The notes: generated by a model not told the origin, from the letters alone. DNA of 64,000 bases from Verrucomicrobiia bacterium (GCA_036269115.1 DATAST010000091.1:24889-88888), one strand, 5' to 3'. Numbered from the stretch's first letter, positions 7,317 through 26,198 are shown. Numbers and translations: made by a program.

Positions 7317-7354
7317 TGCCGGCCGTCCGAGTTGCGGTACAATTGCGCGACGTT

Positions 7355-8857: not shown

Positions 8858-9879
8858 TGGCAAAGTCGAAACAACCGGGCCTGGCAAAAGCGCGCGCGGC
8901 GAAGCTTCGCGATGCGATGACAATTCTGGAGGCACTCGGCTTCGCCGCGCGGCAAAGCAACGAAGTGGCTGCCTACAGCTTTCTCGCCCTGATTGACCTC
9001 AAGCCGTTTCAGCTGTGGAATGAAGCTGCCGAACCGTTGCGGGGCATCACGCCCATCATTGATTTCGTGGCCGAAGCGTATGGCGTTCGCTACGCGCCGA
9101 ACACCCGTGAAACGATTCGCGATGAGGCAGTGAAGTATTTCGTCGAGGCCGGAATGCTGATTCGGAACCCGGATGCCCCAAACCGCCCAACGAATAGCGG
9201 GAAGACAGTCTATCAAATCGAGCCAACGGCGCTCGAATTGTTTCGCTCGTTCGGCGGTTTGGAATGGAGCGGAAAACTGAAATCGTATTTGGTTGAGCGC
9301 GGGCGCATCCGCAATGAGTTGCTTCGCGAAAGAAAGCTATCAAGAATTCCGGTCAGGCTCCCGTCGGGCGCAACTGTGACTATATCGCCAGGTGGGCAGA
9401 ATCCGCTTATGAAGACCGTGATTGAGGAATTCTGCCCTCGTTTCGCGCCCGGTGGCACGGTCGTTTATATCGGTGACGCGGAGGACAAGTTTCTGCATTT
9501 GGACGCGGATTATCTGTGGCGGCTCGGCGTCGAAATTCCGGCGCCAGCCAAAATGCCCGACGTGATCGTCCATGACACGAAACGGAACTGGCTTTTGCTC
9601 ATTGAAGCCGTAACCAGTGCCGGGCCGGTTGACGGCAAACGGCGGAAAGAGTTGGCGCAGTTATTTGCGGGATGCAAAGCGGGTCTGGTTTTCGTCACGG
9701 CGTTTTCAACTCGCGACGCGATGCGGACCTTTCTGACGCAGATTTCCTGGGAGACGGAAGTGTGGGTCGCGGAAGACCCGGAGCACATGATTCATTTCAA
9801 TGGCGAAAGGTTTCTCGGCCCTTACCCTGATGTGATGCCGAAAGTCACAAAGACTACAAAGAGCTTCCCGCGAAGATGA
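8857..9879 (+). CDS. BsuBI/PstI-family type II restriction endonuclease
   Basis: 340 aa. N-terminal ILEALGFAARQSNEVAAYSFLALIDLKP and C-terminal MPDVIVHDTKRNWLLLIEAVTSAGPVDGKRRKEL..FVTAF..WETEVWVAEDPEHMIHFNGERFLGPY match my memory of the BsuBI/PstI REase N- and C-terminal domains. Translationally coupled to the upstream methyltransferase. Confidence 0.75.
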   Translation: MAKSKQPGLAKARAAKLRDAMTILEALGFAARQSNEVAAYSFLALIDLKPFQLWNEAAEPLRGITPIIDFVAEAYGVRYAPNTRETIRDEAVKYFVEAGMLIRNPDAPNRPTNSGKTVYQIEPTALELFRSFGGLEWSGKLKSYLVERGRIRNELLRERKLSRIPVRLPSGATVTISPGGQNPLMKTVIEEFCPRFAPGGTVVYIGDAEDKFLHLDADYLWRLGVEIPAPAKMPDVIVHDTKRNWLLLIEAVTSAGPVDGKRRKELAQLFAGCKAGLVFVTAFSTRDAMRTFLTQISWETEVWVAEDPEHMIHFNGERFLGPYPDVMPKVTKTTKSFPRR

Positions 9880-11643: not shown

Positions 11644-13410
11644 GTGTTATCAACATATGAGCAGGTTATGAGTGAGACCGCGATCAAAGAGTCTTCGGCG
11701 AAGGGGTTGCTCGAGCGCATGGTCGCCAACCGGCAGCTTTCGGCGATTGATGCGGAGATATTAGCCAAAGAAAAGTCGGCTGTTCAAAGCGAGGAAGACG
11801 TTTTGCGCTGGCTCGCCAAGGAATATGGACTGGCCTTTACCACGCTTGATGACGTGGACCCGGATCGGCAGTTGCTCTCGCTCTTTCCCGCGCGGTTATT
11901 GTTGAAGGAAGAGTTGCTTCCCTTAAAGCGGGACAATGGAACCGTGGAAGTGGCCACGAGCCGCCTCTTTGCGACTCAGGGCCTGGACGCACTTAAGACA
12001 ATGACCGGCTTGCATCTCAAGCCGGTCATTGCCTCCACGGAAGCTATCCAACGCGAAATCAAGAAGCGGCTCGGCGTCGGCGCCGATACCATCGGTACCC
12101 TTGACGAAGAAAAAGGATTCCAGGTCGTCGATGAAAACGCCGAGGACACGGACCTGGACGGAGCCGAAGAGGACGAGGCTTCGATCATCCGGTTCGTCAA
12201 CCAGGTGCTCAAGGACGCCATCGAGTTGCGCGCATCCGACATTCATCTGGAGCCCTTCGAGGATGAATTCCGGATTCGTTACCGCATTGACGGTGTTTTG
12301 CAGGATGTTCCGGTGCCGGCGCAGTTGAAACGCTTTCAACCGGCGATCGTCTCGCGCATTAAGATTCTGAGCCATTTGAACATTGCAGAAAAGCGCTTGC
12401 CGCAGGACGGGCGCATCAGGGTCCGCATTGAAGATGCCGAGGTGGATATCCGTGTTTCAATCATTCCCATGCTGCATGGCGAGGCGGTGGTCATGCGTTT
12501 GCTGCGTCAAAATTCCACGTTGCGCGGCATGGGCGAACTCGACATGGCCCGGCGTGAATTGGATTGTTTCGATCGCGTGTTGGAATTGCCTCACGGCATC
12601 ATCCTGGTTACCGGGCCGACCGGCAGCGGCAAGACTTCGACGCTTTACACCGCCTTGAACGAGATCAACGATTCGGAACGCAAAATTATCACGATCGAAG
12701 ACCCGGTTGAATACCAACTCAAAGGCGTCAATCAAATCCAGGTTAATGAAAAGTCGGGCCTCACATTTGCGCGCGGTTTGCGGTCCATTTTGCGCCATGA
12801 CCCGGATGTCATTCTCATCGGCGAAATTCGTGACCAGGAAACGGCGCAAATTGCCGTGCAAGCTTCGTTGACCGGTCACCTGGTTTTTTCCACGCTGCAC
12901 ACCAACGACGCGCCCGGCGCGGTGACGCGGTTGGTCGACATGGGAGTCGAGCCGTACCTGGTGGCGTCCTCTCTCGAAGCTGTGCTCGCGCAACGTCTCG
13001 TGCGCGTTCTTTGCAAACATTGCCGGCAGCCGGACGATTCGCCCACGGCACAGGCCCTCAAGGTGCAATTGGATATCCCCGCCAACACGACGATCTACAA
13101 GTCCGTTGGTTGTCGCGAATGTCGCAACACGGGTTTCTTCGGCCGGCACGCGATTTTTGAATGGATGGATACGGACAATGAAATCCGGCAGCTGATTTTA
13201 AAGAACGCCTCGACGGACCAGGTCCGTGACGCGGCCCGTCGGCAGGGAATGACAACGCTCGCCGAAGACGGCTGGCGCCTCGTGCGCCTTGGAATCACCA
13301 CGGTCGAAGAAGTCCTGAGCGTGACCACCGCCAAGGAAGTCGCCCGCACAACCAAGAACGAAACCCTGGATGCAACGGCGGGGCCGCAAGGAATCGCGCT
13401 GGCAAGGTGA
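11644..13410 (+). CDS. gspE: type II secretion / type IV pilus assembly ATPase GspE/PilB
   Basis: 588 aa. N-terminal T2SSE_N-like region, Walker A GPTGSGKTST, and tetracysteine motif CKHC..CRECRNTG typical of GspE/PilB. Track start 11644 is GTG; an ATG alternative lies at 11668. Confidence 0.95.
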   Translation: MLSTYEQVMSETAIKESSAKGLLERMVANRQLSAIDAEILAKEKSAVQSEEDVLRWLAKEYGLAFTTLDDVDPDRQLLSLFPARLLLKEELLPLKRDNGTVEVATSRLFATQGLDALKTMTGLHLKPVIASTEAIQREIKKRLGVGADTIGTLDEEKGFQVVDENAEDTDLDGAEEDEASIIRFVNQVLKDAIELRASDIHLEPFEDEFRIRYRIDGVLQDVPVPAQLKRFQPAIVSRIKILSHLNIAEKRLPQDGRIRVRIEDAEVDIRVSIIPMLHGEAVVMRLLRQNSTLRGMGELDMARRELDCFDRVLELPHGIILVTGPTGSGKTSTLYTALNEINDSERKIITIEDPVEYQLKGVNQIQVNEKSGLTFARGLRSILRHDPDVILIGEIRDQETAQIAVQASLTGHLVFSTLHTNDAPGAVTRLVDMGVEPYLVASSLEAVLAQRLVRVLCKHCRQPDDSPTAQALKVQLDIPANTTIYKSVGCRECRNTGFFGRHAIFEWMDTDNEIRQLILKNASTDQVRDAARRQGMTTLAEDGWRLVRLGITTVEEVLSVTTAKEVARTTKNETLDATAGPQGIALAR

Positions 13411-13437
13411 TATGAGATCTCTCCACGAGCGGCACTT

Positions 13438-13510
13438 CCGTAGCGCAGGTTTCCAAACCTGCTGTATCGCCGATTTCCAAATCGGCGTGCCGTTCGAACG
13501 CCGGTGCCGG
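13438..13510 (+). repeat. repeat family E (tandem perfect hairpins)
   Basis: GCAGGTTTCCAAACCTGC and CGCCGATTTCCAAATCGGCG palindromes in tandem. Related copies lie at 46298-46371 and 50061-50150. Confidence 0.85.
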
Positions 13511-13573
13511 TCAGGATTTTCAAGTTCATGGTCCCTCCTCGTGAACCGGATCGAATATCCGCATCAAAACGAC

Positions 13574-13728
13574 TCTCCCTCACCCCGGCCCTCTCCCGTC
13601 CACCCTCCGCAGTATCACCAGTCCGCGGTTCTCCGTAGTGCGGGGTATTATGTGCTCGTCCGAAAGCAATGTAATGCGCAATGCTACGGAGGACGGGCAA
13701 GGAGAGGGGGAATAGTCGTCCGACGGTT
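13574..13728 (-). repeat. repeat family F, expanded copy with a nested insertion in its loop
   Basis: The arms CTCTCCCTCACCCCGGCCCTCTCCC and GGCAAGGAGAGGGGGAA are the reverse complement of the GGGAGAGGGCAGGGGTGAGGGAGAG / TTCCCCCTCTCCTTGC family. They are separated by about 90 nt that carries its own CTCCGTAG..CTACGGAG stem. Confidence 0.7.
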
Positions 13729-13800
13729 GGAAACCACGGTCGATTACATCGGTTCGGGAGTACGCGGCGCAAATCACAAATCGCCAATCCAAAATAGATA

Positions 13801-15048
13801 ATGCCTACGTTTTCCTACAGAGCTTTACAGACAAACGGCGCGATCGCCGAAGGGGTGCTTGATGCTCCGGGCCGTCCGGATGCTTTGCGGCAGATCGAGA
13901 CGCTGGGATTGCGCCCGGTGCATGTATCGGAAAAAGCCGGCGCGACCGCCAAAAACGGCGCGGCTTCGGCGGGAAATTTTTCCCTCAACTCGTTCAAGTT
14001 CGAATCCAGAAAAGTTTCCGCGAAGGCACTGGAAAATTTTACGCGTTTGTTGTCGAGCCTTCTGGCGGCGGGCGTGCCGCTAAGCCGCGCGCTCGTGATT
14101 TTGTGCAAGGAAGCGAGTGCCCCAGTGGTCGCGGCGAAATGGAGGGAGATTCATGACTATGTCGTCGACGGCATGTCGTTGGCCAATGCCATGGCAAAAT
14201 CGCCGGAGACTTTCCCTCGCGTGTATGTCGCGATGGTGGAGGCGGGTGAGGCCGGTGGATTTCTGGATGTGGTGCTGGCGCAAATCGCGGATTTTCAATC
14301 GCGCCAAAAAGAATTGAAATCCAAGGTGGTCACGGCGATGACTTATCCCTGCATTTTGTTTATTGTTTCGACGATCATCCTTACGGCCTTGCTGGTATTT
14401 TTCGTTCCCAAACTGCAACAGGTATTTAAAACACTCCATGGTTCATTGCCTTTGATCACTCAAATCATCATCAACACGAGCGACGCATTGCGCTCTTACG
14501 GGCTATTCATTCTCGTTGGCGCGGCCATTCTTGCGATCGCCGCGAGCACATGGTTTCGTTCGGAAAAAGGAAAGCGCATCTGGGAAGGATTTATTTTGCG
14601 CGTGCCCCTGGTCGGCCCGCTGCTGGCGCAATTCGCCATGGCGCGCTTTTGCCGGATGCTTGGCACGCTGTTGGGCGCGGGCGTGCCACTGGTGCAAAGC
14701 CTCAATGTCGCCCGCCGCTCCATCGGCAATCAAATCCTCGTGGATGCTGTGGGACAATCAATTGAGCGCGTGCAGCAGGGCGGACGCCTCGGCCAAAGCC
14801 TTGCCGACTGTAAAATCCTTTTCACCGGGTCGGTGCTGGAAATGATCTCGGTGGCTGAGGAAAGCGGCCGGCTGGATTCTGAGTTAATAAGAGTTTCCAC
14901 CGTGACCGAAGGCGACCTGGACCGGGGCTTGAAAACGGCGGTTTCCGTCGCCGAACCTATGTTGCTCTTTTTCATCGCCGTTTTCATCGGCCTCATTTTC
15001 ATCGGCATGCTATTGCCTGTGCTGTCCATGAGCCAATATGTCCACTAA
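13801..15048 (+). CDS. gspF: type II secretion platform protein GspF/PilC
   Basis: 415 aa. Duplicated T2SSF-type domains (AGVPLSRALVIL.. and AGVPLVQSLNVARRSIGN..) and three hydrophobic segments in the usual positions. Confidence 0.95.
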   Translation: MPTFSYRALQTNGAIAEGVLDAPGRPDALRQIETLGLRPVHVSEKAGATAKNGAASAGNFSLNSFKFESRKVSAKALENFTRLLSSLLAAGVPLSRALVILCKEASAPVVAAKWREIHDYVVDGMSLANAMAKSPETFPRVYVAMVEAGEAGGFLDVVLAQIADFQSRQKELKSKVVTAMTYPCILFIVSTIILTALLVFFVPKLQQVFKTLHGSLPLITQIIINTSDALRSYGLFILVGAAILAIAASTWFRSEKGKRIWEGFILRVPLVGPLLAQFAMARFCRMLGTLLGAGVPLVQSLNVARRSIGNQILVDAVGQSIERVQQGGRLGQSLADCKILFTGSVLEMISVAEESGRLDSELIRVSTVTEGDLDRGLKTAVSVAEPMLLFFIAVFIGLIFIGMLLPVLSMSQYVH

Positions 15049-15167
15049 AACACTTTCAAAATGACAATTTATAAAATCAAAACGACAACTAACATGAACC
15101 TACCAACCCATCCTCGTGCGTCCCGTGAAACAGCGTCGTCGAACGAGACAAAAACACAGAAGATGCC

Positions 15168-15302
15168 GCAGTTCAAATTCGCGCTGTCGCGCGGCTTATC
15201 ATTCAGCGGCTTATTTTCGGGTGCTGTTACCCAGGGCGTCGCGCTCGCGGACTCGCGCTTTGCCCTGGGCTATTATCGTCCGCCCTTTCAGGGCTTTCAG
15301 TT
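15168..15302 (+). repeat. repeat family C copy (135 bp)
   Basis: Aligns along its whole length with the reverse complement of 50295-50430 (shared CGCGCTNTCGCGCGGCT, CAGCGGCTTAT, TTACCCNGGGCG, GACTCGCGCT, GCCCNGGGCT, CAGGGCTTTCAGTT). It lies between gspF and the gspG prepilin motif, and the frame stays open across it. Confidence 0.85.
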
Positions 15303-15354
15303 TGCTGCTTCGCAGACAAGTGGGAATACGACAGGGTTGCACGCCTGTACGACG

Positions 15355-15780
15355 TTGGCGCAACCTGCAGTCCGTCGTCGGGTTTCCCGCGCGTTTACTT
15401 TGATCGAAATCATGCTCGTAGTCGCGATCATCGGCATTTTGGCGGCCATCGTGGTTCCCAAAATTGCCGGACGCAGCGAAGAGGCGCGTGTGACCCGTGT
15501 GCAGACGGACATTAAAGGCGGCATTGCGACGGCCGTGGGCGCATTCGAGGTGGACAACGGATTTTATCCCAAGAGCCTGCAGGATTTGCTGCAGAAGCCC
15601 CGCAACGCCCGGAATTGGCACGGTCCTTATCTGGATTCGGCTCCAGTAGATCCGTGGGGTAATGCCTATCTCTATGCTTATCCCGGAAAACACAACTCAA
15701 CCGGTTACGACCTTTGGTCCGTCGGGCCGGATGGTAAATCAGGAACAGCTGATGACATTGGAAACTGGACAACACAATAG
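15355..15780 (+). CDS. gspG: major pseudopilin GspG
   Basis: Prepilin motif SRA|FTLIEIMLVVAIIGILAAIVVP, then GspG-type body (RVQTDIKG..FEVDNGFYP..WHGPYL..DPWGNAYLY..YDLWSVGPDGKSGTADDI). Start is uncertain. TTG 15355 gives a 13-aa basic leader, TTG 15337 is an alternative, and the frame is open from ATG 15061 through a 135-bp repeat. Confidence 0.9.
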   Translation: MAQPAVRRRVSRAFTLIEIMLVVAIIGILAAIVVPKIAGRSEEARVTRVQTDIKGGIATAVGAFEVDNGFYPKSLQDLLQKPRNARNWHGPYLDSAPVDPWGNAYLYAYPGKHNSTGYDLWSVGPDGKSGTADDIGNWTTQ

Positions 15781-16279
15781 CAATAGGTCGCGAAACCAAT
15801 GTGCTTTTACGCTCATCGAATTGGTCCTGGTGATGGCGTTGCTCGTGGTGGCCGTCTCCATCGTCGCGCCCCGGTTCTCGGATTTTATTCGCGGCCGGGA
15901 CCTGGATTCGGAGGCGCGCAGGTTGTTGGCGCTCGCGGATGCGGGGGAATCGCGCGCAGTGTCCGAAGGGATGCCGATGGTGTTGTGGTTCAACGCGAAG
16001 CAGAACACTTGCGGACTTGAGGCGGAGACGCCGCCCAAAGGCGGGGATACCAAAGCGGAAGATTTATCCATCAGTGAAAGCGTGGCCATCACGCCGGTCA
16101 ACACAGGCGCACCGGCAACGACCACGTTTAATCATTTGCCGGCAATCCGTTTTTTGCCGGATGGCACGGTGGATTTAAGCAGCCCACGCACGATTCAATT
16201 GACTGAAGGCGATGACAAGCTGTGGATGCTCGAATTGCAAAATCGCACAGGCTATGAAATTAGCGACAGTTCAAAATAG
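15752..16279 (+). CDS. gspH: minor pseudopilin, GspH/FimU-like
   Basis: Track ORF trimmed to ATG 15752 (29-nt overlap with gspG). The 18-aa leader ends in QCA|FTLIELVLVMALLVVAVSIVAPRF, followed by DLDSEARRLLALADAGESRAV, as in GspH-type proteins. Confidence 0.75.
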   Translation: MTLETGQHNSNRSRNQCAFTLIELVLVMALLVVAVSIVAPRFSDFIRGRDLDSEARRLLALADAGESRAVSEGMPMVLWFNAKQNTCGLEAETPPKGGDTKAEDLSISESVAITPVNTGAPATTTFNHLPAIRFLPDGTVDLSSPRTIQLTEGDDKLWMLELQNRTGYEISDSSK

Positions 16280-16796
16280 GGTAGGGACGGCGCGCCGCGC
16301 CGTCACCGCCCGTACAGCGGGCGGAACGCACGCTGTTGAACGTCCCACGCCCACGGATTGCGCCGCTAAACGCGGCGCTGACGCCGCAGCGCGGCGTCCC
16401 TACCAGTCTGCATTCACCCTGGCGGAGACGCTGGCGGCGCTGGTGTTTATGGCGATTTTGATCCCGGCCGTGGTTGAGGCCCTGCACGTCGCCAGTGGCG
16501 CGGGCGAAATCGCCGTGCGCAAAGGCGAAGCCGCGCACGTGGCCGACCGCGTTTTGAACCAAAGCCTGGTGATGACCAATTGGAGTACCGGCGCGCAAAA
16601 CGGCGTTACCGATGTGGGCTCCGATGAATTTCATTGGACGTTAAAAAGCCAAAACTGGCCGCAAGACACCATGCAACTGCTCACAGCCACGGTGAGCTTT
16701 TCCACGCAGGGACACGATTACTCCGTGGAACTGAGCACCCTGGCCAATCTTCAATCCCAGGCTACGCCGGCGGGAACACAAGGGAAGATGCCATGA
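16254..16796 (+). CDS. minor pseudopilin, GspI-like, with a REPIN translated inside its leader
   Basis: Prepilin motif QSA|FTLAETLAALVFMAILIPAVVEAL with F at 16413. The only in-frame ATG/GTG/TTG/CTG codons upstream of the motif are ATG 16254 and ATG 16212, both upstream of the REPIN at 16280-16404. The small body ends in a GspI-like beta region. Confidence 0.65.
   Translation: MKLATVQNRVGTARRAVTARTAGGTHAVERPTPTDCAAKRGADAAARRPYQSAFTLAETLAALVFMAILIPAVVEALHVASGAGEIAVRKGEAAHVADRVLNQSLVMTNWSTGAQNGVTDVGSDEFHWTLKSQNWPQDTMQLLTATVSFSTQGHDYSVELSTLANLQSQATPAGTQGKMP
16280..16404. repeat. REPIN-like element copy 2
   Basis: GGTAGGGAC..GTCCCTACC inverted ends. Arms are GTAG plus GGACGGCGCG-C-CGCGCCGTC and GACGCCGC-AGC-GCGGCGTCC plus CTAC. 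Starts 1 nt after the gspH TAG stop. Confidence 0.85.
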
Positions 16797-17620
16797 ATTT
16801 CAAAAGCGTTGAAACGTTGAAGCGGGCAGCATCTTCGGAGCGCGGCTGGGTCGGAGACCAGCCGCAGCGCGTCGTAACTTTCGTGAGTGCTGCCCCGAAA
16901 GCTTTCGGGGGTGCCCTTTTGCCCCCACACAGCCGCGCTCCGTCACCTCAACACGCGTTTACACTCATCGAAATGATCCTGGCCATTGGCGTTGCGGCTA
17001 TCGTGCTAATCACGATCTGCAGTGTCTTCTTTGCCGCTCTTCGCCTGCGCAACTCGACCCAGAATTACGTGGACGCGGCAACGCCCGTGGACCAAACGCT
17101 TTCGATAATGAAGCGCGACCTTGCGTGCGTTGTGACGCCAACAAATGGCACGACGAAAGTTTTGTCCGGCGATTTTCGAGTGGGCAACGTCATCAGCACC
17201 GGCAGCGGCATGCCGGCAGCCATTGAAATGTTCACGGCGAGCGGGCAAATCGGCGACCAACAACCCTGGGGCGACATCCAGCGTGTGACCTACGAATTGC
17301 GCGATCCCACCACGCGCGATGCGGTGGGAAAGGATCTGTTCCGCAGTGTCACACGGAATTTGTTGTCTAATACACCCACGACGCCCGAAGACCAGTTGAT
17401 GATGAGTGGCGTCCAGAGCATCGCCTTTTCCTGCTACGATGGCGCGCAGTGGTCGAGCACCTGGGACACGACCGGACTGACTTCGGCAAATACAAACCTG
17501 CCGACGGCAGTTCGGGTGGACATTCAGCCGGCCGGAAACCAAATGGCGCCAATTGAAATGGTCGTGCCTGTCGATTCCCAGGCGCGCACCAACGCCGTCT
17601 TGACCGCGCAAGCGCAATGA
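16793..17620 (+). CDS. minor pseudopilin, GspJ-like
   Basis: ATG 16793 overlaps the upstream stop (ATGA). Prepilin motif QHA|FTLIEMILAIGVAAIVLITICSVFFAALRL with F at 16958. A 105-bp repeat lies between the ATG and the motif; in-frame GTG 16883 and TTG 16919 inside the repeat are alternative starts. Confidence 0.7.
   Translation: MNFKSVETLKRAASSERGWVGDQPQRVVTFVSAAPKAFGGALLPPHSRAPSPQHAFTLIEMILAIGVAAIVLITICSVFFAALRLRNSTQNYVDAATPVDQTLSIMKRDLACVVTPTNGTTKVLSGDFRVGNVISTGSGMPAAIEMFTASGQIGDQQPWGDIQRVTYELRDPTTRDAVGKDLFRSVTRNLLSNTPTTPEDQLMMSGVQSIAFSCYDGAQWSSTWDTTGLTSANTNLPTAVRVDIQPAGNQMAPIEMVVPVDSQARTNAVLTAQAQ
16837..16941 (+). repeat. repeat family D copy (105 bp)
   Basis: Inverted ends GGAGCGCGGCTG / CAGCCGCGCTCC and central hairpin CCCCGAAAGCTTTCGGGGG. 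Related copy at 21071-21197. Confidence 0.8.
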
Positions 17621-19005
17621 AACCGTATCAATCCAGTTCGATTCGCAGGCAGCGCCGCAAGACTGGGGCGGTACTGATCATCGTTCTGTGGATTGCCATC
17701 GGCATGGTCAGCATAGCTTTGTACTTCGCAAACTCGATGACTTACGAATTGCGCGCTTCGGACAATCGCGTGAGCGGACTCGAGGCTGACCAGGCCATCG
17801 AAGGAGCAGCGCGCTATGTGAGTTTTGTTCTCTATAATTATGCCACCAACGGCGCGATGCCGTTGACGAACCAATACCAAACCGCAGCCGTGCCGGTGGG
17901 TGACGCGCATTTTTGGTTCATCGGCCACGACCCGGAGGAGACGCCCAATTTCGACCCGTATTTTGGCCTGGTGGATGAAGCCTCCAAGTTGAATTTGAAT
18001 ACCGTCGGCACCAACACCCTCATGGCCATCCCAAATGTGACGCCGGATTTTGCCGACGCGATCGCGGACTGGCGCAGTACCAATGGGGTGGGAACGTATT
18101 CGTTGAATTATGGGTCGCTCGGTTACGACGACAAAAACCGTGCGTTTGAAACCGTGGATGAATTGAGACTCGTCTACGGGGCCACGATGGAACTTTTGAT
18201 CGGAAACGATGCCAATCTCAACGGCGTTTTGGATTCGAGTGAGAAAGGTTCAGATGCGGGCGCCACGCTTCAATCGGGGCTTTTTCAGATGTGCACTGTC
18301 TATACCCGCGAACCGAATTTTACGACTTATAACGGAGAAACCGTCCTGTTGACCAACGTCAACACCGCAAGCCAGGCGGATCTGCGGGCACTTTTTCAAA
18401 ATGCTACGGTAAATACCTCGTACGTATCTCCCCTTTATACTTATGCTCATCCAAGTGGCCGCGCCGCGGTGACGTTTAAGGGCATCCTGGATTTTTGTGT
18501 TCATTGCAGGAATGCAGGGTTGAGCACGGAGGATTTTGCGAAAATTTATCCCAACGTCACGACCAGCACAGCCAACTATATTCGCGGGCGTATCAACATC
18601 GACACGGCTGGGCCGGCGGTGCTAACGGCGTTGTTTTGGGGCGTTGGCTACAGCCAGGGCGTGGACGAAAGTACAGCCCAAAGCGCGGCGCAATCGGTCA
18701 TCGATTATCGTGTGCAAAACCCGCAGAACCTGACTTCGGTCGGGTGGATCGTCGACGCGCTCGGCACGAGCAGCCCGGTCATCAAAGCGTTGCAAACCGG
18801 GGACTATGTTACCGCGAAGACCTATCAATTTACTGCGGACATCGCCGCAGTCGGTCCCTATGGCCGTGGTTACCGCCGGGTGAAGTTCATTTTCGATACC
18901 AGTGACGGCTCGCCCAAAATCATTTATCGCCAGGATTTATCCAGCCTCGGCTGGGCGCTGGGCGATAAAGCCCGTGAAACCTGGGTCGCCAAGGCAACAC
19001 CATGA
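17617..19005 (+). CDS. gspK: minor pseudopilin GspK
   Basis: 462 aa; ATGA overlap with the upstream gene. N-terminus RRKTGAVLIIVLWIAIGMVSIALYFANSM lacks the Glu5 residue, as in GspK. Large body with DELRLVYGATMELL-type helical repeats. Confidence 0.8.
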   Translation: MKPYQSSSIRRQRRKTGAVLIIVLWIAIGMVSIALYFANSMTYELRASDNRVSGLEADQAIEGAARYVSFVLYNYATNGAMPLTNQYQTAAVPVGDAHFWFIGHDPEETPNFDPYFGLVDEASKLNLNTVGTNTLMAIPNVTPDFADAIADWRSTNGVGTYSLNYGSLGYDDKNRAFETVDELRLVYGATMELLIGNDANLNGVLDSSEKGSDAGATLQSGLFQMCTVYTREPNFTTYNGETVLLTNVNTASQADLRALFQNATVNTSYVSPLYTYAHPSGRAAVTFKGILDFCVHCRNAGLSTEDFAKIYPNVTTSTANYIRGRINIDTAGPAVLTALFWGVGYSQGVDESTAQSAAQSVIDYRVQNPQNLTSVGWIVDALGTSSPVIKALQTGDYVTAKTYQFTADIAAVGPYGRGYRRVKFIFDTSDGSPKIIYRQDLSSLGWALGDKARETWVAKATP

Positions 19006-20483
19006 ATAATGTTTTGAAGATTAATTTTAGAAAACGAAAACGGCTGACCAGCCTGCTGGGCCTGACGCTCGACGGCACCCGGCTCGAGGGAGTCGTGCTG
19101 CGCCGCAACAACGGCTCGGTCAGCGTTCAGCAGACTTTTTCGGTCGTGCTGACGCTGGACCCGCTGACGGCGGCGCCGGAATTGGTTGGCCGCGAAATCC
19201 TGAACCACCTCGAGGCCGCCGAAGTGCGCGAGCGGAATTGCATTCTCGGCCTGCCGTTGAAATGGGTTTTGACCGCAGGCACAGAACTGCCGCCGTTGCC
19301 CGAGGCTGACGCCGTGAACCTGTTACAACTCGAGGCTGAACGAGGTTTTCACAGCGATATCACGACGCTTCAACTGGCTGAATCGCGTTGCGCTTTGGCG
19401 GGTGACAAAAAGCAAGTGACGTTCGCCGCCGTTTCCAAGAGTCAGATCGAACCGCTGATTGCCGTCCTCACCGCGGCCAAATTGAAGCCGGTCAGCTTTT
19501 CGCTGGGACTCACAGCGCTGCAACCGCCGTCAGACACCCGCTCACACACGGTCGGGGCTCAGTCGAATGGCGTGCTCGCTCTGGCGATAGGAGAAACCGG
19601 TGTGGGACTGCAAATCACCTGCAGCGGCGGCGTGGCTGCGCTTCGCGGATTCGAGGGGGCGGTTGGGACCGAAGGAAGCCGGCGCGTATTGCAAGCCGGT
19701 GTCGTGGCGAGAGAAGCGCGAATCACTTTGGGCCAGTTGCCCGCGGAATTGCGCGGTATGGTCAAACACATCCGGATTTTTGGTCCGCAGGATTTGGCCC
19801 GGCAATTGGCTGACGAAATGGAATTGGCGTTTGAGCCAATGGGTATCGACGTCGAAGTCGTTACCGCGTATAAGCCGAATGAAGTTGGTGTCCAGGCGCC
19901 GCCTGATGCGCCAGTCTCGGGGGCTTTCAGCCTGGCGGCGCGCCATCTGGCGGAACTACCCCCGGTATTTGAATTCCTGCCGCCGCGTCCCACGGTGTTC
20001 GAACAATTCGTTACCCGCTATTCATCCGGCAAAACCCGGACTGCCGGCATGGCTGCCGCGGCGGTGGTTGCGATTGTGCTGTGCTTTTTCCTGTTTCAGC
20101 AAATCGAACTGACAATTTTGCGCTCGAAGTGGAAAGCCATGTCCGCGAAGGTGGCTGATTTGTCAGCTTTGCAGGACAAGATTCAGCGGTATCAACCCTG
20201 GTATGACAGTTCATTTCCCGCGCTGACCATTCTGCGCCAGGTCACGATGGCCTTTCCCGAAGACGGCGTGGTAACGGCCAAAGCCATTGAAATTCATAAT
20301 GGCAACCAGGTGACCTGCACGGGCGTGGCGACTGACAGCGGCGGCCTGTTGCGAATGCTCGGGCAATTGCGCGCGACTGCCGGAGTCACCGGTGTGACGG
20401 TGGAACAGATTCGCGGGAAATCGCCCATGCAATTTACGTTTGATTTTCAGTGGAGTGAAAACGGAGGACAAAATGGAAATTAA
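19002..20483 (+). CDS. gspL: GspL-like (PilM-like cytoplasmic domain, one TM, PilN-like periplasmic domain)
   Basis: 493 aa; ATGA overlap with gspK. About 350 aa of cytoplasmic region, then TM AGMAAAAVVAIVLCFFLF, a coiled segment and a C-terminal mixed alpha/beta domain. Position and topology match GspL. Confidence 0.55.
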   Translation: MNNVLKINFRKRKRLTSLLGLTLDGTRLEGVVLRRNNGSVSVQQTFSVVLTLDPLTAAPELVGREILNHLEAAEVRERNCILGLPLKWVLTAGTELPPLPEADAVNLLQLEAERGFHSDITTLQLAESRCALAGDKKQVTFAAVSKSQIEPLIAVLTAAKLKPVSFSLGLTALQPPSDTRSHTVGAQSNGVLALAIGETGVGLQITCSGGVAALRGFEGAVGTEGSRRVLQAGVVAREARITLGQLPAELRGMVKHIRIFGPQDLARQLADEMELAFEPMGIDVEVVTAYKPNEVGVQAPPDAPVSGAFSLAARHLAELPPVFEFLPPRPTVFEQFVTRYSSGKTRTAGMAAAAVVAIVLCFFLFQQIELTILRSKWKAMSAKVADLSALQDKIQRYQPWYDSSFPALTILRQVTMAFPEDGVVTAKAIEIHNGNQVTCTGVATDSGGLLRMLGQLRATAGVTGVTVEQIRGKSPMQFTFDFQWSENGGQNGN

Positions 20484-21003
20484 AAATCGCCAGCAACGCC
20501 TGCTTGTAGTGACGCTCGTCGTCGCGGGACTCTACATCGCCAACCTGGCGATTTACGGGCCGCTGGTCAAATGGTGGAAATCACGGCAAGCAGATGTTGC
20601 CGAGCTGAAACAGGAGGTCAACGACGGGAACGCATTGATTCGCCGCGAATCGGCCATTCGAGACAAGTGGCAGCACATCCAGTCGAATGCCCTGGCCAAT
20701 GACCCATCGCAGGCTGAACAAAAGGTGCTCAAGGCGTTTGACAGCTGGGCCAGCTACACCGGTGTGAACGTCGAAAGCATCACCCCTCAATGGCAAAATG
20801 ACCAAAATGATTATTCGACCCTGGATTGCCGCGTGGAAGCTTCCGGCGACCTCGAGACCCTGAGCCGTTTTGTCTATCAAATTGAAAATGACCCGATGGA
20901 CCTTCAACTTGAGTCCGTCGAGCTGACCGCCAGCGACGACAAAGGCCGGCAACTGACGCTCGGTCTCCAAATCAGCGGCCTTGCCCTTGTTACGACACAA
21001 TAA
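20473..21003 (+). CDS. gspM: GspM/PilO-like bitopic inner-membrane protein
   Basis: Track ORF trimmed to ATG 20473 (GGAGGA 4 nt upstream; 11-nt overlap with gspL). MEIKNRQQRLLVVTLVVAGLYIANLAIYGPL TM, then a coiled coil and a ferredoxin-like C-terminus. Confidence 0.55.
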   Translation: MEIKNRQQRLLVVTLVVAGLYIANLAIYGPLVKWWKSRQADVAELKQEVNDGNALIRRESAIRDKWQHIQSNALANDPSQAEQKVLKAFDSWASYTGVNVESITPQWQNDQNDYSTLDCRVEASGDLETLSRFVYQIENDPMDLQLESVELTASDDKGRQLTLGLQISGLALVTTQ

Positions 21004-21004
21004 C

Positions 21005-21871
21005 ATGAATTTACTGGAATCATTCTCAATCAGGTTTTACGCTCCTTTTTCCTATTTCGCGAAGCGTCATGGAGTGCGGCGGCAACCCCGAAAGCTTTCG
21101 GGGGACGCCGCTTTCGACCAACATTCAACGCACGTTACTGAAACCCTCTGCGAACCGGCAACAGCGTTTCAAAGCGGTGTCACAGCCACCGCACTCCAAG
21201 ACCGTGCGGTGGTTCGACAGGTTGTTGGACAGGCCGGTCATTGGACTTGTTTCTCGAAACTTTTTTTCAATAAATCAGCCTTTTTCCTTTTTCCTCTCTC
21301 CTTTTTCCTTATCACCGCCGTCCTCGTCGCGCCCGCCCAATCCACCAACGACTCCGACACAACCACGACGGACTTCTCCTCCTTTCAGGTCATTTCAGAG
21401 CGCAACATTTTCAATCCAGACCGCTATGGCCGGACTACCACTCGTCATTACGAGTCGCGCTCCGTGCCGACCTTTTCATTGGCCGGCACCATGAGCTATC
21501 GCAAGGGGATGTTTGCTTTCTTTGATGGCACTCGGGAGGAATACCGGAAAGCGCTGCAACAGGGAGGAATCATCGCCGGATATACCATCGGGAAAATCAA
21601 TTTCGACGGCGTGGAATTACGGGCTTCCGGCATAACGAATTACATGAGAGTCGGCGCGGCGATGCGGCGTGAGGGAGATGCCTGGGAAATGAGCGCGCCG
21701 GGCGAGTGGGGGGATATGGCGTCTGCAAATGGAACCGGATCGGGCTCGGGGAGTGATACGAACAACGGAACGTCCACCAATTCCAATTCCAATACCGCTT
21801 TGCCCTCCGGCGGCGAACAGAATGACGTCTTAAAACGATTAATGGAGAAACGAGAACAGGAACTAAAATGA
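21005..21871 (+). CDS. GspC/PilP-like secretin-interacting protein
   Basis: ATG 21005 lies 1 nt after the gspM stop. TM FFLFPLSFFLITAVLVAP, then ISERNIFNPDR and a beta-rich region (FSLAGTMSYRKGMFAFFDG..GGIIAGYTIGKINFDGVELR), as in GspC HR / PilP domains. The cytoplasmic N-terminus contains a family D repeat. Confidence 0.5.
   Translation: MNLLESFSIRFYAPFSYFAKRHGVRRQPRKLSGDAAFDQHSTHVTETLCEPATAFQSGVTATALQDRAVVRQVVGQAGHWTCFSKLFFNKSAFFLFPLSFFLITAVLVAPAQSTNDSDTTTTDFSSFQVISERNIFNPDRYGRTTTRHYESRSVPTFSLAGTMSYRKGMFAFFDGTREEYRKALQQGGIIAGYTIGKINFDGVELRASGITNYMRVGAAMRREGDAWEMSAPGEWGDMASANGTGSGSGSDTNNGTSTNSNSNTALPSGGEQNDVLKRLMEKREQELK
21071..21197 (+). repeat. repeat family D copy
   Basis: Inverted ends GGAGTGCGGCGG / CCACCGCACTCC and the same CCCCGAAAGCTTTCGGGGG hairpin as 16837-16941. 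Lies inside the 5' part of the GspC/PilP-like ORF. Confidence 0.8.
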
Positions 21872-23307
21872 AAAAATTGATTCTACCAATAATGTCCATG
21901 TGCTTGGCTGGGCTTTTAGTCCCTGCCCACGCCCAAAATGGCGGCAGCGAACCGCCGGACAACGGCGGTGGCCCGCCCATGCAAGCGCCGTCGCCCGATG
22001 AACCGGGCGCGCCGGCTGACTCTGGAGCGCCTGGAGCGTCCGATCAAACTGGCCAAACCGGCCCGGGCCCGCGACGTGCGCCTTTGCCGGCTGGCGCCAT
22101 TCATTTCGTTCAACCTGGGAGTGCCGCGGCAGCCAGCTTATCCCAGGTCCCGGGACAATCCACCACCATGCATGCATCGTCAGTATTTATGCCGCCGGAT
22201 GACGCCGGCGGCGCGGCCAATCCGGATCAATTGCGCCTGAATTTTAACAATGTTCCCCTGGACATGGTCCTCAATTATTTGAGCGACGCCGCCGGGTTTA
22301 TCATCGTGATGAACACATCGGTGCACGGAAACGTCAGCGTCATCAGCAGCCATCCAATGACCCGCGACGAAGCGGTGAACTTGCTGAATGCGGTTCTTAA
22401 TCAAAACGGCTATGCCGCAGTCCGCAACGGGCGCACCCTCACGATCATGGAAAAAAGCGCCGCTAAAAACAGTGATATCCCCGTGCAGATCGGCAACAAT
22501 CCCGCGGGCATTCCCAGAAACGATGAAATCGTCACCCAAATCATTCCCGTCCGATACGTGGATGCGAGCCAATTGGTCTCGGACTTGTCATCGTTTGTCT
22601 CACCCGAGGCAACGATTGTTGCCAATCAGGCCGGCAATTCCATCGTGGTCACCGACACGCAGCAAAACATCCATCACCTGGTCGAGATCATCGCGGCCAT
22701 CGATCAAAGCGCCGCCGGTGAAACGGAAATCCAGGTCTTCCCTCTCAAGTATGCCAATCCCAATGACGTGGCGACTGAGTTGGGCGAAATCTTTCCGTCC
22801 GGAAATCCGACCAGCACTGGTGGTTCGCCCATCCGTTTCGGTGGATTTGGCGGCGGCGGATTCTTTGGACGAATGATGGCAGCCGCCCAGGCCAACAACA
22901 GTGGCAACGGCAACCGCGCGCAAAAACAATCCCAGGTCACGGCGGTGGCCGATGCGCGCACGCAGTCCGTCATTGTCATGGCTTCGAAGGATTTGATGGT
23001 TGAAATTACAGGTATGATGCAGAGCCTGGACGTGGCTTCCACTCGCGACCAGGGCGTGTATGCCTTTCATCTGCACAACGCCGACCCGCAGGAAGTGGCG
23101 CAGGTCCTGCAAAGTATGTTCCAGTCCGGCAGTTCGGGCCGTGGCAGCGCCCAAAACTCATCGCAGCAGCCTGAAACCAGCGCGCGAATGAATCGCGTGG
23201 CGCAAAATGCTCAGACTGTGAGCACGACCTCCTCAACGATCAGTTCCGGCACGGGCACCGGCGTAGGCCGCGGCGGTGGCGGCGGTGGCGGCCTGGGAGC
23301 ACCTTAA
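21868..23307 (+). CDS. gspD: secretin, N-terminal half (signal peptide, N0-N1-N2 domains and first half of N3)
   Basis: Signal peptide MKKLILPIMSMCLAGLLVPAHAQ and a Pro/Gly-rich linker. Then N0-like LRLNFNNVPLDMVLNYLSDAAGF and repeated secretin N-domains (IVTQIIPVRYVDASQLV..; EIQVFPLKYANPNDVA..VTAVADARTQSVIVMA..). It ends after VYAFHLHNADPQEVAQVLQSMF plus a Gly-rich tail, with no secretin C-domain. Confidence 0.85.
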   Translation: MKKLILPIMSMCLAGLLVPAHAQNGGSEPPDNGGGPPMQAPSPDEPGAPADSGAPGASDQTGQTGPGPRRAPLPAGAIHFVQPGSAAAASLSQVPGQSTTMHASSVFMPPDDAGGAANPDQLRLNFNNVPLDMVLNYLSDAAGFIIVMNTSVHGNVSVISSHPMTRDEAVNLLNAVLNQNGYAAVRNGRTLTIMEKSAAKNSDIPVQIGNNPAGIPRNDEIVTQIIPVRYVDASQLVSDLSSFVSPEATIVANQAGNSIVVTDTQQNIHHLVEIIAAIDQSAAGETEIQVFPLKYANPNDVATELGEIFPSGNPTSTGGSPIRFGGFGGGGFFGRMMAAAQANNSGNGNRAQKQSQVTAVADARTQSVIVMASKDLMVEITGMMQSLDVASTRDQGVYAFHLHNADPQEVAQVLQSMFQSGSSGRGSAQNSSQQPETSARMNRVAQNAQTVSTTSSTISSGTGTGVGRGGGGGGGLGAP

Positions 23308-23320
23308 AAAGTTTGAACGA

Positions 23321-24601
23321 ATGGATAAAATTATGAAAACAAAATTCAAAATATTCGGAAGCATCTTCATCCTGACGGCGTTCGCTGCCATGCAATTGTG
23401 GGCGCAACGGACCGGCGGTTATGGCGGCGGCGGCGGTTATGGCGGCGGCTTTGGTGGCGGTTTCAACCGCGGCGGCTTTGGCGGCTTTGGTGGTAGCAGC
23501 GCCGCCGCTTCGACTAGCAGCCAATACAATAATAACGGCACCGTCGGAAACGCGACCATCGAAGTGGACCCGGACACGGGAAATATCATGGTCATTGCTG
23601 ACCAGCAGACGAGCATGGCCATCAGCAACGTCATTGCGAACATGGACCGGCCAAAGCCCCAGGTGCTTATCAAAGTGGTGTTTTTGGAAGTCCAGTTGGA
23701 CAACGCCGAAGCTCTCGGCGTGCAGGGCTCGTACACGCCTCAGGAAAGTTGGTTCTCTCAAATCACGGGTTTAGTGACGAATACATTTAATGTCACCAGC
23801 AATGGAACGGTGGTTCCGGGTACCGTATCGCCGACCCGCCAAACCTTTAATGTGAACAATGGTTTCGGTTTGCCCCAAACGCTTGCAGGCGCGACTGGAA
23901 ACGCCGGTGTTTATTCAGTCCTGGGCAGCGACTTCACGGCCACATTGCAGGCCATTGCTACTTCGGGTAAGGCGCAAATTGTCTCGCGCCCATCCATCCT
24001 GGCGCGCGACGGCCAGCCGGCCACTATTCTGGTGGGATCGGAAGTCCCGCTCGTCACCGGCATCAGCTATGAAACCGTTGGCGCCAACACGGTCCCCATC
24101 AACAATGTCACCTATACGCCCGTGGGCATCCAGGTGAACGTCACACCTTATGTTTCCCCGGATAATTATGTGGAAATGATCGTCACGCCCCAGGACTCGG
24201 AAGTGGATCCCACCCAAACCGAACCCATTGGCGGCGGCGTCAATGCGCCCGTCATTGACACGCGCTCGGCAGATACTGTGGTCCTCACGCCCGACGGCCA
24301 AACCGTCGTCATCGGCGGTCTCATCGCAAACGACAAACAATCCGCTGCGACTAAAATTCCGCTTCTTGGCGATATTCCCATCCTCGGCGCACTCTTCCGC
24401 TACAAAGCCAATTCCGATGATAAGAATGAGCTGATGATCTTTATGACGCCGCATATCGTCCATGCTCCGATGGAACTGGCCAGCGCCGTCAACGCGCCTA
24501 ATCTTACCAGCGGATTTATCACCAATTCTGTCACTGAACAGCAATTGGACAAATTCCTCGAAAATATTCCGGAAAAGCAGGGGACGAAACACTGGCATTA
24601 A
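23321..24601 (+). CDS. gspD: secretin, C-terminal half (own signal peptide, second half of N3, secretin pore domain)
   Basis: ATG 23321 (or 23333) lies 13 nt after the upstream stop. Signal peptide MKTKFKIFGSIFILTAFAAMQLWAQ, then a GGYGGGGGYGGGFGGGFNRGGFGGFGG tract. ATIEVDPDTGNIMVIADQQTSMAISNVIANMDRPKPQVLIKVVFLEV follows, then the secretin domain (IVSRPSILARDGQPATILVGSEVP..IPLLGDIPILGALFRYK..ELMIFMTPHIV). Confidence 0.85.
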   Translation: MDKIMKTKFKIFGSIFILTAFAAMQLWAQRTGGYGGGGGYGGGFGGGFNRGGFGGFGGSSAAASTSSQYNNNGTVGNATIEVDPDTGNIMVIADQQTSMAISNVIANMDRPKPQVLIKVVFLEVQLDNAEALGVQGSYTPQESWFSQITGLVTNTFNVTSNGTVVPGTVSPTRQTFNVNNGFGLPQTLAGATGNAGVYSVLGSDFTATLQAIATSGKAQIVSRPSILARDGQPATILVGSEVPLVTGISYETVGANTVPINNVTYTPVGIQVNVTPYVSPDNYVEMIVTPQDSEVDPTQTEPIGGGVNAPVIDTRSADTVVLTPDGQTVVIGGLIANDKQSAATKIPLLGDIPILGALFRYKANSDDKNELMIFMTPHIVHAPMELASAVNAPNLTSGFITNSVTEQQLDKFLENIPEKQGTKHWH

Positions 24602-24629
24602 TATACAATGGTTCGCAGATAACCACCGC

Positions 24630-26198
24630 ATGGAACTCAAACGCCGCGATACATTCGTTTACGGGATCCTCCTGGGAATCTGGTTGCTGGTCGTGGGTTG
24701 GCAGGTTGAAGAGCACCTCCGCGTCGAATCCGCAGCCAGGACGGATTTGCGCAATCGTTCCACCGAAATCGCCGATACACTCAGCGCGGTCGTTCACGCA
24801 ACGCGTTTTCGTGGAACGGTCTTGCAGGATCGTCTCGGCCTGGTTCTCAATGAATTGGCAAACGTTCACACGAACGAGTTGCTAAGCTCTCCCGGCGTCT
24901 TGTCTATCGCTCTGCTCAATACTGCTGGCGATCCCGTCGTCGCCGGTGGCGATACCAACTTGATTCCGAAGGCGGCGTTGTCCGAAGGCGAATTGTGGAC
25001 CCACGACAATGTAACCTTTGTAAATCCGGTGTGGTTCGCGAGCATCGGTCCCGAAAACGCGTCCAACGCCACTGTCGTTCTGCCGCCGCCTGAGGATTTT
25101 TCCAATTCAATCCCGCGTGGTGAACGATTCGAGGGCCGCGAATTCCGAACCAACGGGATCGTCTTTTACAGTTCAACCAATCCGCCGCCGACGAACGGCG
25201 AGGGCGGCTTCTTCGGGGTTCAGCCGCCGCCTGATGACGGAAATACTAACGGCCCGCGTCGCTTTGTATTCATGGAACGTCGCAACATGCGTCGTCCGCC
25301 CTGGTTGCGCTGGATGAGCGAGGACCAGTTTAAGGCGCTGACTGCCAAACGCGAACTGCATGGGTTAGTCCTCACCATGTCCACCGAAAATCTGCTCGCG
25401 GTTTCGCGGGATGATTTGTGGATGCGCGCGATCATCGTCTTTTTCGCCGGCATTTCGGCCGTCGGCATCGGCCTGGCCTGGCGCAATTTATCGAAAACGT
25501 CTGAGCTTCAAATCCGGCTTGTTCGTGCCAGCGAATTGAATTCGCATTTGCGCGAAATGAACCTCGCGGCAGCCGGCCTCGCCCATGAAACCCGCAATCC
25601 CCTGAATATCATTCGCGGCATGGCTCAAATGATTTCAAAGTCCGATGGGTCCCCGGATCTTAAGGAAAAATCCAGGGCCATCGTGGATGAAACGGACAAA
25701 GTCACCGCGCAATTGAATGAGTTCATCAACTACTCCCGTCCGCGCGAAGTCCGCCGGGCCAGGGTCGATCTTAATGCCGTGGTTGCCGAAGTCGTCCGCG
25801 CCCTCGGCTACGACATCGAAGAAAAGAAAATCCGGGTCGAAACAAAGAAGGACCCGCTTTTTATTGAAGCGGATGAGCAATTGCTCCGGCAGGCGTTGTT
25901 CAATCTTCTTCTCAACGCCATTCAGGCGGTCGGAGAGAACGGCCAAATTCAATTTGCCGCCCGCAAAGAAAACGCCTCGGGAGCGGAACTGGAAATTCGC
26001 GACAATGGCTCCGGCGTGCCGCCCGAGCAACGCAAAGAAATCTTTAAGCCTTATTTCACCACCCATCAAAAAGGCACCGGCCTGGGATTGGCGATTGTGC
26101 AGCAGATCGTCCTGGCCCACGGCTGGGAAATCGAGTGTCTGCCCAACGAGCCTAAGGGGGCTCTGTTCCGCATCAGCCACTTAAAAGCCGCAGGGTAG
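24630..26198 (+). CDS. sensor histidine kinase (NtrB/PilS-like)
   Basis: Track ORF trimmed to ATG 24630. N-terminal TM, periplasmic region and second TM. H-box LAHETRNPLNII, N-box LLLNAIQAV, G-boxes IRDNGSGV and GTGLGLAIV. The TAG stop lies inside the head of a REPIN. Confidence 0.9.
   Translation: MELKRRDTFVYGILLGIWLLVVGWQVEEHLRVESAARTDLRNRSTEIADTLSAVVHATRFRGTVLQDRLGLVLNELANVHTNELLSSPGVLSIALLNTAGDPVVAGGDTNLIPKAALSEGELWTHDNVTFVNPVWFASIGPENASNATVVLPPPEDFSNSIPRGERFEGREFRTNGIVFYSSTNPPPTNGEGGFFGVQPPPDDGNTNGPRRFVFMERRNMRRPPWLRWMSEDQFKALTAKRELHGLVLTMSTENLLAVSRDDLWMRAIIVFFAGISAVGIGLAWRNLSKTSELQIRLVRASELNSHLREMNLAAAGLAHETRNPLNIIRGMAQMISKSDGSPDLKEKSRAIVDETDKVTAQLNEFINYSRPREVRRARVDLNAVVAEVVRALGYDIEEKKIRVETKKDPLFIEADEQLLRQALFNLLLNAIQAVGENGQIQFAARKENASGAELEIRDNGSGVPPEQRKEIFKPYFTTHQKGTGLGLAIVQQIVLAHGWEIECLPNEPKGALFRISHLKAAG

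Follow-up and report, generated by a model that had tools for sequence, protein, structure and literature searches.

A GspD secretin encoded by two adjacent genes, with the break inside the N3 domain, in a type II secretion operon of Verrucomicrobiota

In type II and type III secretion, type IV pili and filamentous phage export, the gate in the outer membrane is a secretin, and in the well-studied members the pore and the periplasmic rings are parts of a single chain. Here we describe a secretin that is divided over two genes, found in 64,000 nucleotides (nt) of DNA from a Verrucomicrobiia bacterium (GCA_036269115.1, DATAST010000091.1:24889-88888); this whole stretch is referred to as the window. 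The secretin is the GspD of a complete type II secretion system (T2SS) operon in a Verrucomicrobiota genome (Limisphaerales or subdivision 3 group). Its two genes, which we call gene 1 and gene 2, lie next to each other on the plus strand. Their features are listed below with coordinates in the window, in order of position (aa, amino acid residues; ORF, open reading frame; pLDDT, predicted local distance difference test score).

21868..23307, plus strand: gene 1, N-terminal secretin polypeptide, 479 aa, frame 1, stop codon TAA at 23305-23307 (ORF, Pfam, TIGR02517, PDB alignment)
21868..21933, plus strand: predicted signal peptide of gene 1, MKKLILPIMSMCLAGLLVPAHA, then Q (read from sequence; kept in homologs)
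22237..23043, plus strand: intact N0 (aa 124-188), N1 (aa 223-282) and N2 (aa 289-392) (PF21305, PF03958, alignment to 5wq7)
23053..23121, plus strand: N3a, the beta1-alpha1 half of N3, aa 396-418, GVYAFHLHNADPQEVAQVLQSMF (aligns to N3 beta1-alpha1 of E. coli GspD)
23122..23304, plus strand: C-terminal Ser/Gly/Thr tail of gene 1, predicted to be disordered (composition; pLDDT < 50)
23308..23332, plus strand: intergenic spacer of 25 nt (GC content about 0.32, compared with 0.68-0.75 in the flanking Gly-codon tracts)
23333..24601, plus strand: gene 2, C-terminal secretin polypeptide, 422 aa from ATG 23333 (ORF, Pfam, TIGR02517, PDB alignment)
23333..23404, plus strand: predicted signal peptide of gene 2, MKTKFKIFGSIFILTAFAAMQLWA, then Q (A24 and Q25 invariant in a 13-sequence alignment)
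23405..23521, plus strand: Gly/Phe/Tyr-rich mature N-terminus of gene 2, predicted to be disordered (pLDDT < 50)
23525..23647, plus strand: YNNNG motif and N3b, the beta2-beta3-alpha2 half of N3, aa 65-105 (aligns to GspD, XcpQ and PulD)
23954..24460, plus strand: secretin pore domain, aa 208-376 (PF00263, E 2.3e-49)
24461..24598, plus strand: C-terminal tail of gene 2 with a conserved ITNSVSEQELDxFLE motif, at the position of the S-domain of other secretins (13-sequence alignment)

A preliminary description, made from the sequence alone, had proposed that the secretin is split in two, with a predicted signal peptide on each part, and the ORFs, the Pfam matches and the complementary coverage of the GspD profile TIGR02517 bear this out. 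Pfam and the alignment to the E. coli GspD structure (5wq7) also agree with the composition it gave for each product, namely N0, two complete N-domains and a beta1-alpha1 half in the 479 aa of gene 1, and a signal peptide, a Gly/Phe/Tyr tract, a beta2-beta3-alpha2 half and the pore in gene 2. In gene 1, Pfam recognizes N0 at aa 124-188 and three Secretin_N stretches, and the product is 100% identical to NCBI HEX3625477.1 ("secretin N-terminal domain-containing protein"), which comes from a Verrucomicrobiae metagenome-assembled genome (MAG). The Secretin_N match in gene 2 is weak and covers only profile positions 25-69. The description had further pointed to a similar loop at the equivalent position of N2; this is the Gly/Phe-rich GGSPIRFGGFGGGGFFG loop at aa 312-355, which lies topologically where the split lies in N3 and is skipped by the 5wq7 alignment (aa 312-357).

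We determined the position of the break by profile and structure alignments. Gene 1 covers positions 1-301 and gene 2 positions 278-597 of the 600 positions of TIGR02517, with scores of 199.9 and 236.5 bits, respectively; each is below the 351-bit cut-off, and the sum is 436. Neither product by itself has the score or the full set of domains of a one-polypeptide GspD. A secretin pore and an N0 followed by repeated N-domains are both present, and N3 is shared, its first half being in gene 1 and its second half in gene 2. When aligned to 5wq7, aa 358-450 of gene 1 correspond to residues 206-294, which comprise the second half of N2 and beta1-alpha1 of N3, and gene 2 from aa 66 corresponds to residue 280 onwards, which comprises beta2-beta3-alpha2 of N3 and then the pore. 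Therefore, the break falls in the loop between alpha1 and beta2 of N3. Gene 2 aligns to PulD (6hcg) from residue 306, just past the loop 288-303, which could not be built in the cryo-electron microscopy map (PMC6882859). At the level of sequence, these alignments show that the two predicted products together account for all parts of a GspD; they do not overlap, and the only gap is of disordered sequence.

At the junction, gene 1 is in frame 1 and gene 2 in frame 2, and we found no terminator-like site between the two. The gap of 13 nt given in the preliminary description holds only as far as an in-frame upstream ATG at 23321, which would give MDKIMKTKF...; the likely start of gene 2 is the ATG at 23333 (MKTKFKIF...), 25 nt past the gene 1 stop, because the homologs begin at MKT.... 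The junction, including the stop codon, is reproduced base for base in an independent Logan contig of 1.9 kb (L085), which argues against the assembly artefact that the description had raised as a concern. On that contig (1763-1927), the downstream gene is called from a GTG at window position 23276, overlapping gene 1. A gene 2 protein starting with MKTKF was not found in a collection of 15 billion proteins, whereas gene 1 is present there. Thus, public start-site calls for gene 2 are inconsistent.

We then surveyed relatives, taking one genome per GTDB species and inspecting the best 80 of 574 genomes with relatives. All 80 are titled as or binned with Verrucomicrobiota, many of them being labelled Limisphaerales or subdivision 3. 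Both halves are intact in 73 species-level genomes, which we used for the adjacency and identity figures; in every one of these 73 loci, the gene 1 homolog is followed directly by the gene 2 homolog, usually with a spacer of 14-65 nt. No fused gene occurred among the best 80 of the 574 genomes, and the remaining loci holding both halves have the same two-part order; the continuous ORF in relatives that would have spoken against a split was thus not seen. Protein searches gave the same picture. The best 120 matches to gene 2 are nearly all 400-480 aa long, with a few shorter fragments, and the best 120 matches to gene 1 are 340-515 aa long, so that all 240 matches listed for the two halves are half-length, at identities down to about 53%, with many pairs on one contig. 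The frame of gene 2 relative to gene 1 differs among genomes, being the same, +1 or +2. In three MAGs (L009, L016 and L025), the gene 1 homolog is itself in two ORFs, which may represent frameshifts or assembly errors rather than natural splits.

The conservation of the individual segments was compared as mean identity to the window protein over the 73 genomes. The two halves of N3 have values of 59% (N3a) and 62% (N3b), within the 58-70% of the intact N0, N1, N2a and N2b, whereas the tail of gene 1 and the Gly/Phe head of gene 2 have only 33% and 36%, respectively. These comparisons show both half-domains to be maintained like real domains, under purifying selection. The two-gene arrangement is kept over a deep clade.

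In every gene 1 homolog examined, the Ser/Gly/Thr tail, predicted to be disordered, is 43-70 aa long in relatives, with S 23%, G 21% and T 15%; the head of gene 2 is 16-44 aa long in relatives, with 45% Gly and 11% Phe. The gene 1 product ends in Phe or Tyr (QF, SF, GF, LF...) in 52 of 74 species-level loci, and in Pro (AP or LP) in the window (23290-23304) and its closest relatives. An aromatic C-terminus retained after a disordered tail suggests a docking motif. GGFGGFGG-type Gly/Phe tracts in the gene 2 head (23405-23521) and in the N2 loop of gene 1 (22801-22932) are reminiscent of FG repeats, and fused relatives from Planctomycetota have 100-120 aa of similar sequence in the N3 loop. The YNNNG motif (23525-23539), which lies directly 5′ of N3 beta2, does not vary in the 13-sequence alignment; 41 of 74 loci have it in exact form, and fused (single-chain) relatives lack it. 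Some gene 1 homologs (L035, L055, L062, L065, L069, L071 and L076) are about 100 residues longer between N2 and the C-terminus and may contain an extra N-domain.

Both products begin with Sec-type signal-peptide-like N-termini that are conserved, that of gene 2 ending in ...h-x-A-Q in nearly all 74 loci; their cleavage, and the assembly of a multimeric (about 15-mer) outer-membrane channel, are predicted. We also considered whether gene 2 carries a lipoprotein signal. Many relatives have a Cys in the hydrophobic core, which is absent from the window protein and from P0097; in the relatives it sits 8 residues before the conserved A-Q site, and the lipoprotein signal was rejected.

Where the split came from is suggested by the nearest single-chain proteins. 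In a library clustered at 50% identity, complete-length matches above 215 bits are all of the short split type (400-480 aa), and the first single-chain relatives, of 800-930 aa, appear at about 40% identity. They have the order N0-N1-N2-N3-secretin with a Gly-rich loop of 100-120 aa between N3 alpha1 and beta2, that is, at the position of the split. Those that bear names are GspD proteins of Planctomycetota (Phycisphaerae, Tepidisphaeraceae). These (for example P0266, P0286 and P0397) share with the Verrucomicrobiota pair the order of domains and a Gly-rich insertion at N3 alpha1-beta2, but are encoded by one gene of 800-870 aa in which the Gly-rich loop of 100-120 aa is continuous. This long loop, together with the unbuilt loop of PulD, upholds the earlier proposal that the break lies in a naturally disordered loop. 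A single-chain ancestor whose disordered loop was already long would then have acquired, inside this loop, a stop codon followed by a short AT-rich spacer and a signal peptide.

We examined structure models for the fold of the two halves. With AlphaFold2, we modelled a chimera of the window sequence only, in which gene 1 aa 389-479 was joined to mature gene 2 aa 25-387. Mixed alignments of the chimera with whole homologs were unusable, as MAFFT placed the second half of N2 on the second half of N3, N2 and N3 being homologous repeats; adding 5-20 copies of the chimera gave no improvement, and the N3a alignment was lost when gene 2 homologs were added to the fused set. With a checked alignment of 110 single-chain relatives, beta1 (aa 396-401) and alpha1 (aa 407-418) of gene 1 were modelled at pLDDT 93-96 and beta2, beta3 and alpha2 (gene 2 aa 75-104) at pLDDT 95, while the linker of about 100 residues formed by tail and head remained below 50. 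The top Foldseek matches of the chimera model are the T2SS secretins GspD, PulD, ExeD and XcpQ (E about 1e-20). As far as a model can tell, this shows that the two halves are compatible with a single N3 domain.

Taken with the sequence data, this model makes it likely that the two genes encode a two-chain secretin whose parts, after separate export, complement each other in N3 in the periplasm. Both chains would be exported separately through Sec. The gene 2 product would form the pore in the outer membrane, beneath which its beta2-beta3-alpha2 half of N3 would lie, and the C-terminal beta1-alpha1 of the gene 1 product would dock on N3b and complete the beta-alpha-beta-beta-alpha fold of N3. 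The docking of N3a to N3b would thereby tether the periplasmic rings N0-N1-N2 to the pore with no covalent link. Two modelling results count against this proposal. In a chimera model with gene 2 homologs only (mean pLDDT of the model 56.7), N3a had a pLDDT of 48-64, was not docked and had beta1 unformed; this model is uninformative for N3a because the segment had no alignment depth. In addition, a one-chain model whose alignment comes from intact homologs speaks to compatibility with the N3 fold and not to binding between separate chains.

The alternative that survives best is that the two proteins do not rebuild N3. Gene 2 alone would then be a short secretin, like RcpA of the Tad system or pIV of phage, and gene 1 would act free in the periplasm as a factor in contact with the substrates or the inner-membrane platform, its beta1-alpha1 remnant serving some other interaction. 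There are indeed secretins with few N-domains to which gene 2 can be matched; RcpA (8odn) and pIV (7ofh) likewise combine a pore with little N-terminal periplasmic region and have a length near that of gene 2. The rhizobial N0-N1 protein and pore protein (see below) are also separate and have no domain in common, and the model with gene 2 homologs only left N3a undocked. However, RcpA and pIV come without a partner bearing the missing half-domain, whereas gene 2 has retained half of N3 and gene 1 always stands before it, the two genes being always adjacent. Neither a beta-alpha unit nor a beta-beta-alpha unit is likely to be stable by itself, but both are conserved like whole N-domains. The halves together align to one N3 of solved GspDs with no gap or overlap, and they reach pLDDT 93-96 when single-chain homologs supply the alignment. 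We consider this alternative unlikely.

Ribosomes could in principle still cross the junction by programmed frameshifting or stop-codon read-through and make a single polypeptide, as the ORFs are close and, in many relatives, are in the same frame with a single stop codon between them. We regard this as very improbable, since the variable relative frame (same, +1 or +2) means that no one recoding event is conserved, and read-through would place the conserved hydrophobic segment of the signal peptide midway along a periplasmic loop; with its AT-rich spacer and conserved MKT start, the junction resembles an ordinary translation initiation region. Finally, the break might have arisen in assembly or sequencing, or a normal single-gene gspD might have become a pseudogene through a recent nonsense or frameshift change. 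In favour of this, gene 2 differs in frame from gene 1, the junction adjoins slippage-prone repetitive GGC/GGT codons and the extra breaks in gene 1 of L009, L016 and L025 resemble errors. As far as sequence data go, it is nevertheless scarcely credible: the two-gene layout recurs in all 73 intact genomes, metagenomic proteins show it in the hundreds, at identities as low as about 50%, gene 2 has kept its signal peptide, both half-domains are conserved, and an independent assembly has the identical junction.

If the two-chain secretin with a complemented N3 is accepted, one may ask whether the split is useful and not merely tolerated. Fifteen copies each of the Ser/Gly/Thr tail, often with its Phe/Tyr end, and of the Gly/Phe "FG-like" head would emerge as free ends at the N3 constriction, where they might join the similar N2 loops to form a disordered plug or selectivity filter in the secretin vestibule. 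The N3 joint, being non-covalent, would also make it possible for the periplasmic rings to bind to, and come off, a pore assembled beforehand. We offer this idea as speculation and think it quite unlikely to be right; if true, secretins would here be gated and assembled in a way for which the systems studied offer no example.

The pair can be compared with several known secretins. The single-chain GspD, PulD and XcpQ proteins (TIGR02517; 5wq7, 5wln and 6hcg) have the same order N0-N1-N2-N3-core, lie in an operon with GspE-K, share the fold of the pore half (Foldseek E about 1e-20) and have a likewise disordered N3 alpha1-beta2 loop. In contrast to them, the window encodes two polypeptides, with the break inside N3, a second signal peptide and disordered Ser/Gly and Gly/Phe ends in place of the loop.

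The term "split secretin" has been published for RhcC1 (NolW) and RhcC2 of rhizobial and Pseudomonas syringae T3SS-2 (a type III secretion system, T3SS) clusters (PMC3574062, PMC3973906). There, too, an N-terminal periplasmic protein and a C-terminal pore protein have a gene each. The rhizobial case differs in that it belongs to a type III system, among sct and nol genes, that the genes are not adjacent and that no domain is cut. On pNGR234a, NolW/RhcC1 (234 aa) has N0 and one complete N-domain (Secretin_N), and RhcC2 (474 aa) is a Tad/Cpa-type secretin with PF13629 (pil_N), BON and Secretin; a CpaD-family lipoprotein adjoins RhcC2. The rhizobial pair (L084 27670-29097, minus strand, and 15373-16077, plus strand) does not look like two halves of one HrcC; RhcC2 has the appearance of a Tad-type secretin recruited as partner of a T3SS N0-N1 protein. 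The window pair is not of this type, as it lies in a T2SS operon and has one cut domain in place of N0 plus a whole N-domain on one side and pil_N plus BON on the other. Beyond the rhizobial T3SS case, we found no report of a split GspD, or of a split secretin in Verrucomicrobia or Planctomycetes, in the literature, of which our coverage is incomplete. The preliminary description knew of no functional secretin assembled from two chains that complement one domain. This needs correction in that a two-chain secretin as such is already known; for two chains complementing one domain, we found no precedent.

The surroundings of the pair are those of a T2SS GspD, in that the core genes for GspE/F/G/H/I/J/K lie directly upstream of gene 1 on the same strand (11644-19005; Pfam). 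The genes of the operon upstream of gene 1 are as follows.

11644-13410, plus strand: GspE (Pfam)
13801-15048, plus strand: GspF (Pfam)
15061-17620, plus strand: pseudopilins GspG/H/I/J (Pfam)
17617-19005, plus strand: GspK (Pfam)
19002-20483, plus strand: 493-aa protein (ORF list; no Pfam match)
20440-21003, plus strand: PilO/GspM-like protein (Pfam)
20981-21871, plus strand: 296-aa protein (ORF list; no Pfam match)

By position, the 493-aa protein (19002-20483) and the 296-aa protein (20981-21871) could be GspL-like and GspC/PilP-like; the N-terminal stretch of the 296-aa ORF is implausible, and its translation probably begins at a later codon. On the other side of the pair, 3′ of gene 2, are genes for a histidine kinase and a sigma-54 response regulator (Pfam). 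The histidine-kinase ORF as listed (24462..26198) overlaps the final 140 nt of gene 2, its true start probably lying past the gene 2 stop. Upstream of the T2SS operon, at 7214-9879, an Eco57I-like or N6 DNA methylase followed by a BsuBI/PstI-family restriction endonuclease makes up a restriction-modification pair.

Since each half falls below the GspD cut-off, annotation pipelines name the two halves differently, so that genome surveys may score the T2SS of this large soil and freshwater clade as having no proper secretin. As a conserved natural two-chain secretin, the pair would imply that the N0-N2 rings can be linked to the pore without a covalent bond, and it singles out the N3 alpha1-beta2 loop as a place that tolerates a break. 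It would also be a rare case of a domain split over two separately exported proteins that must meet in the periplasm, and would provide a ready-made system for asking how the periplasmic rings act in assembly, gating and contact with the inner-membrane platform.

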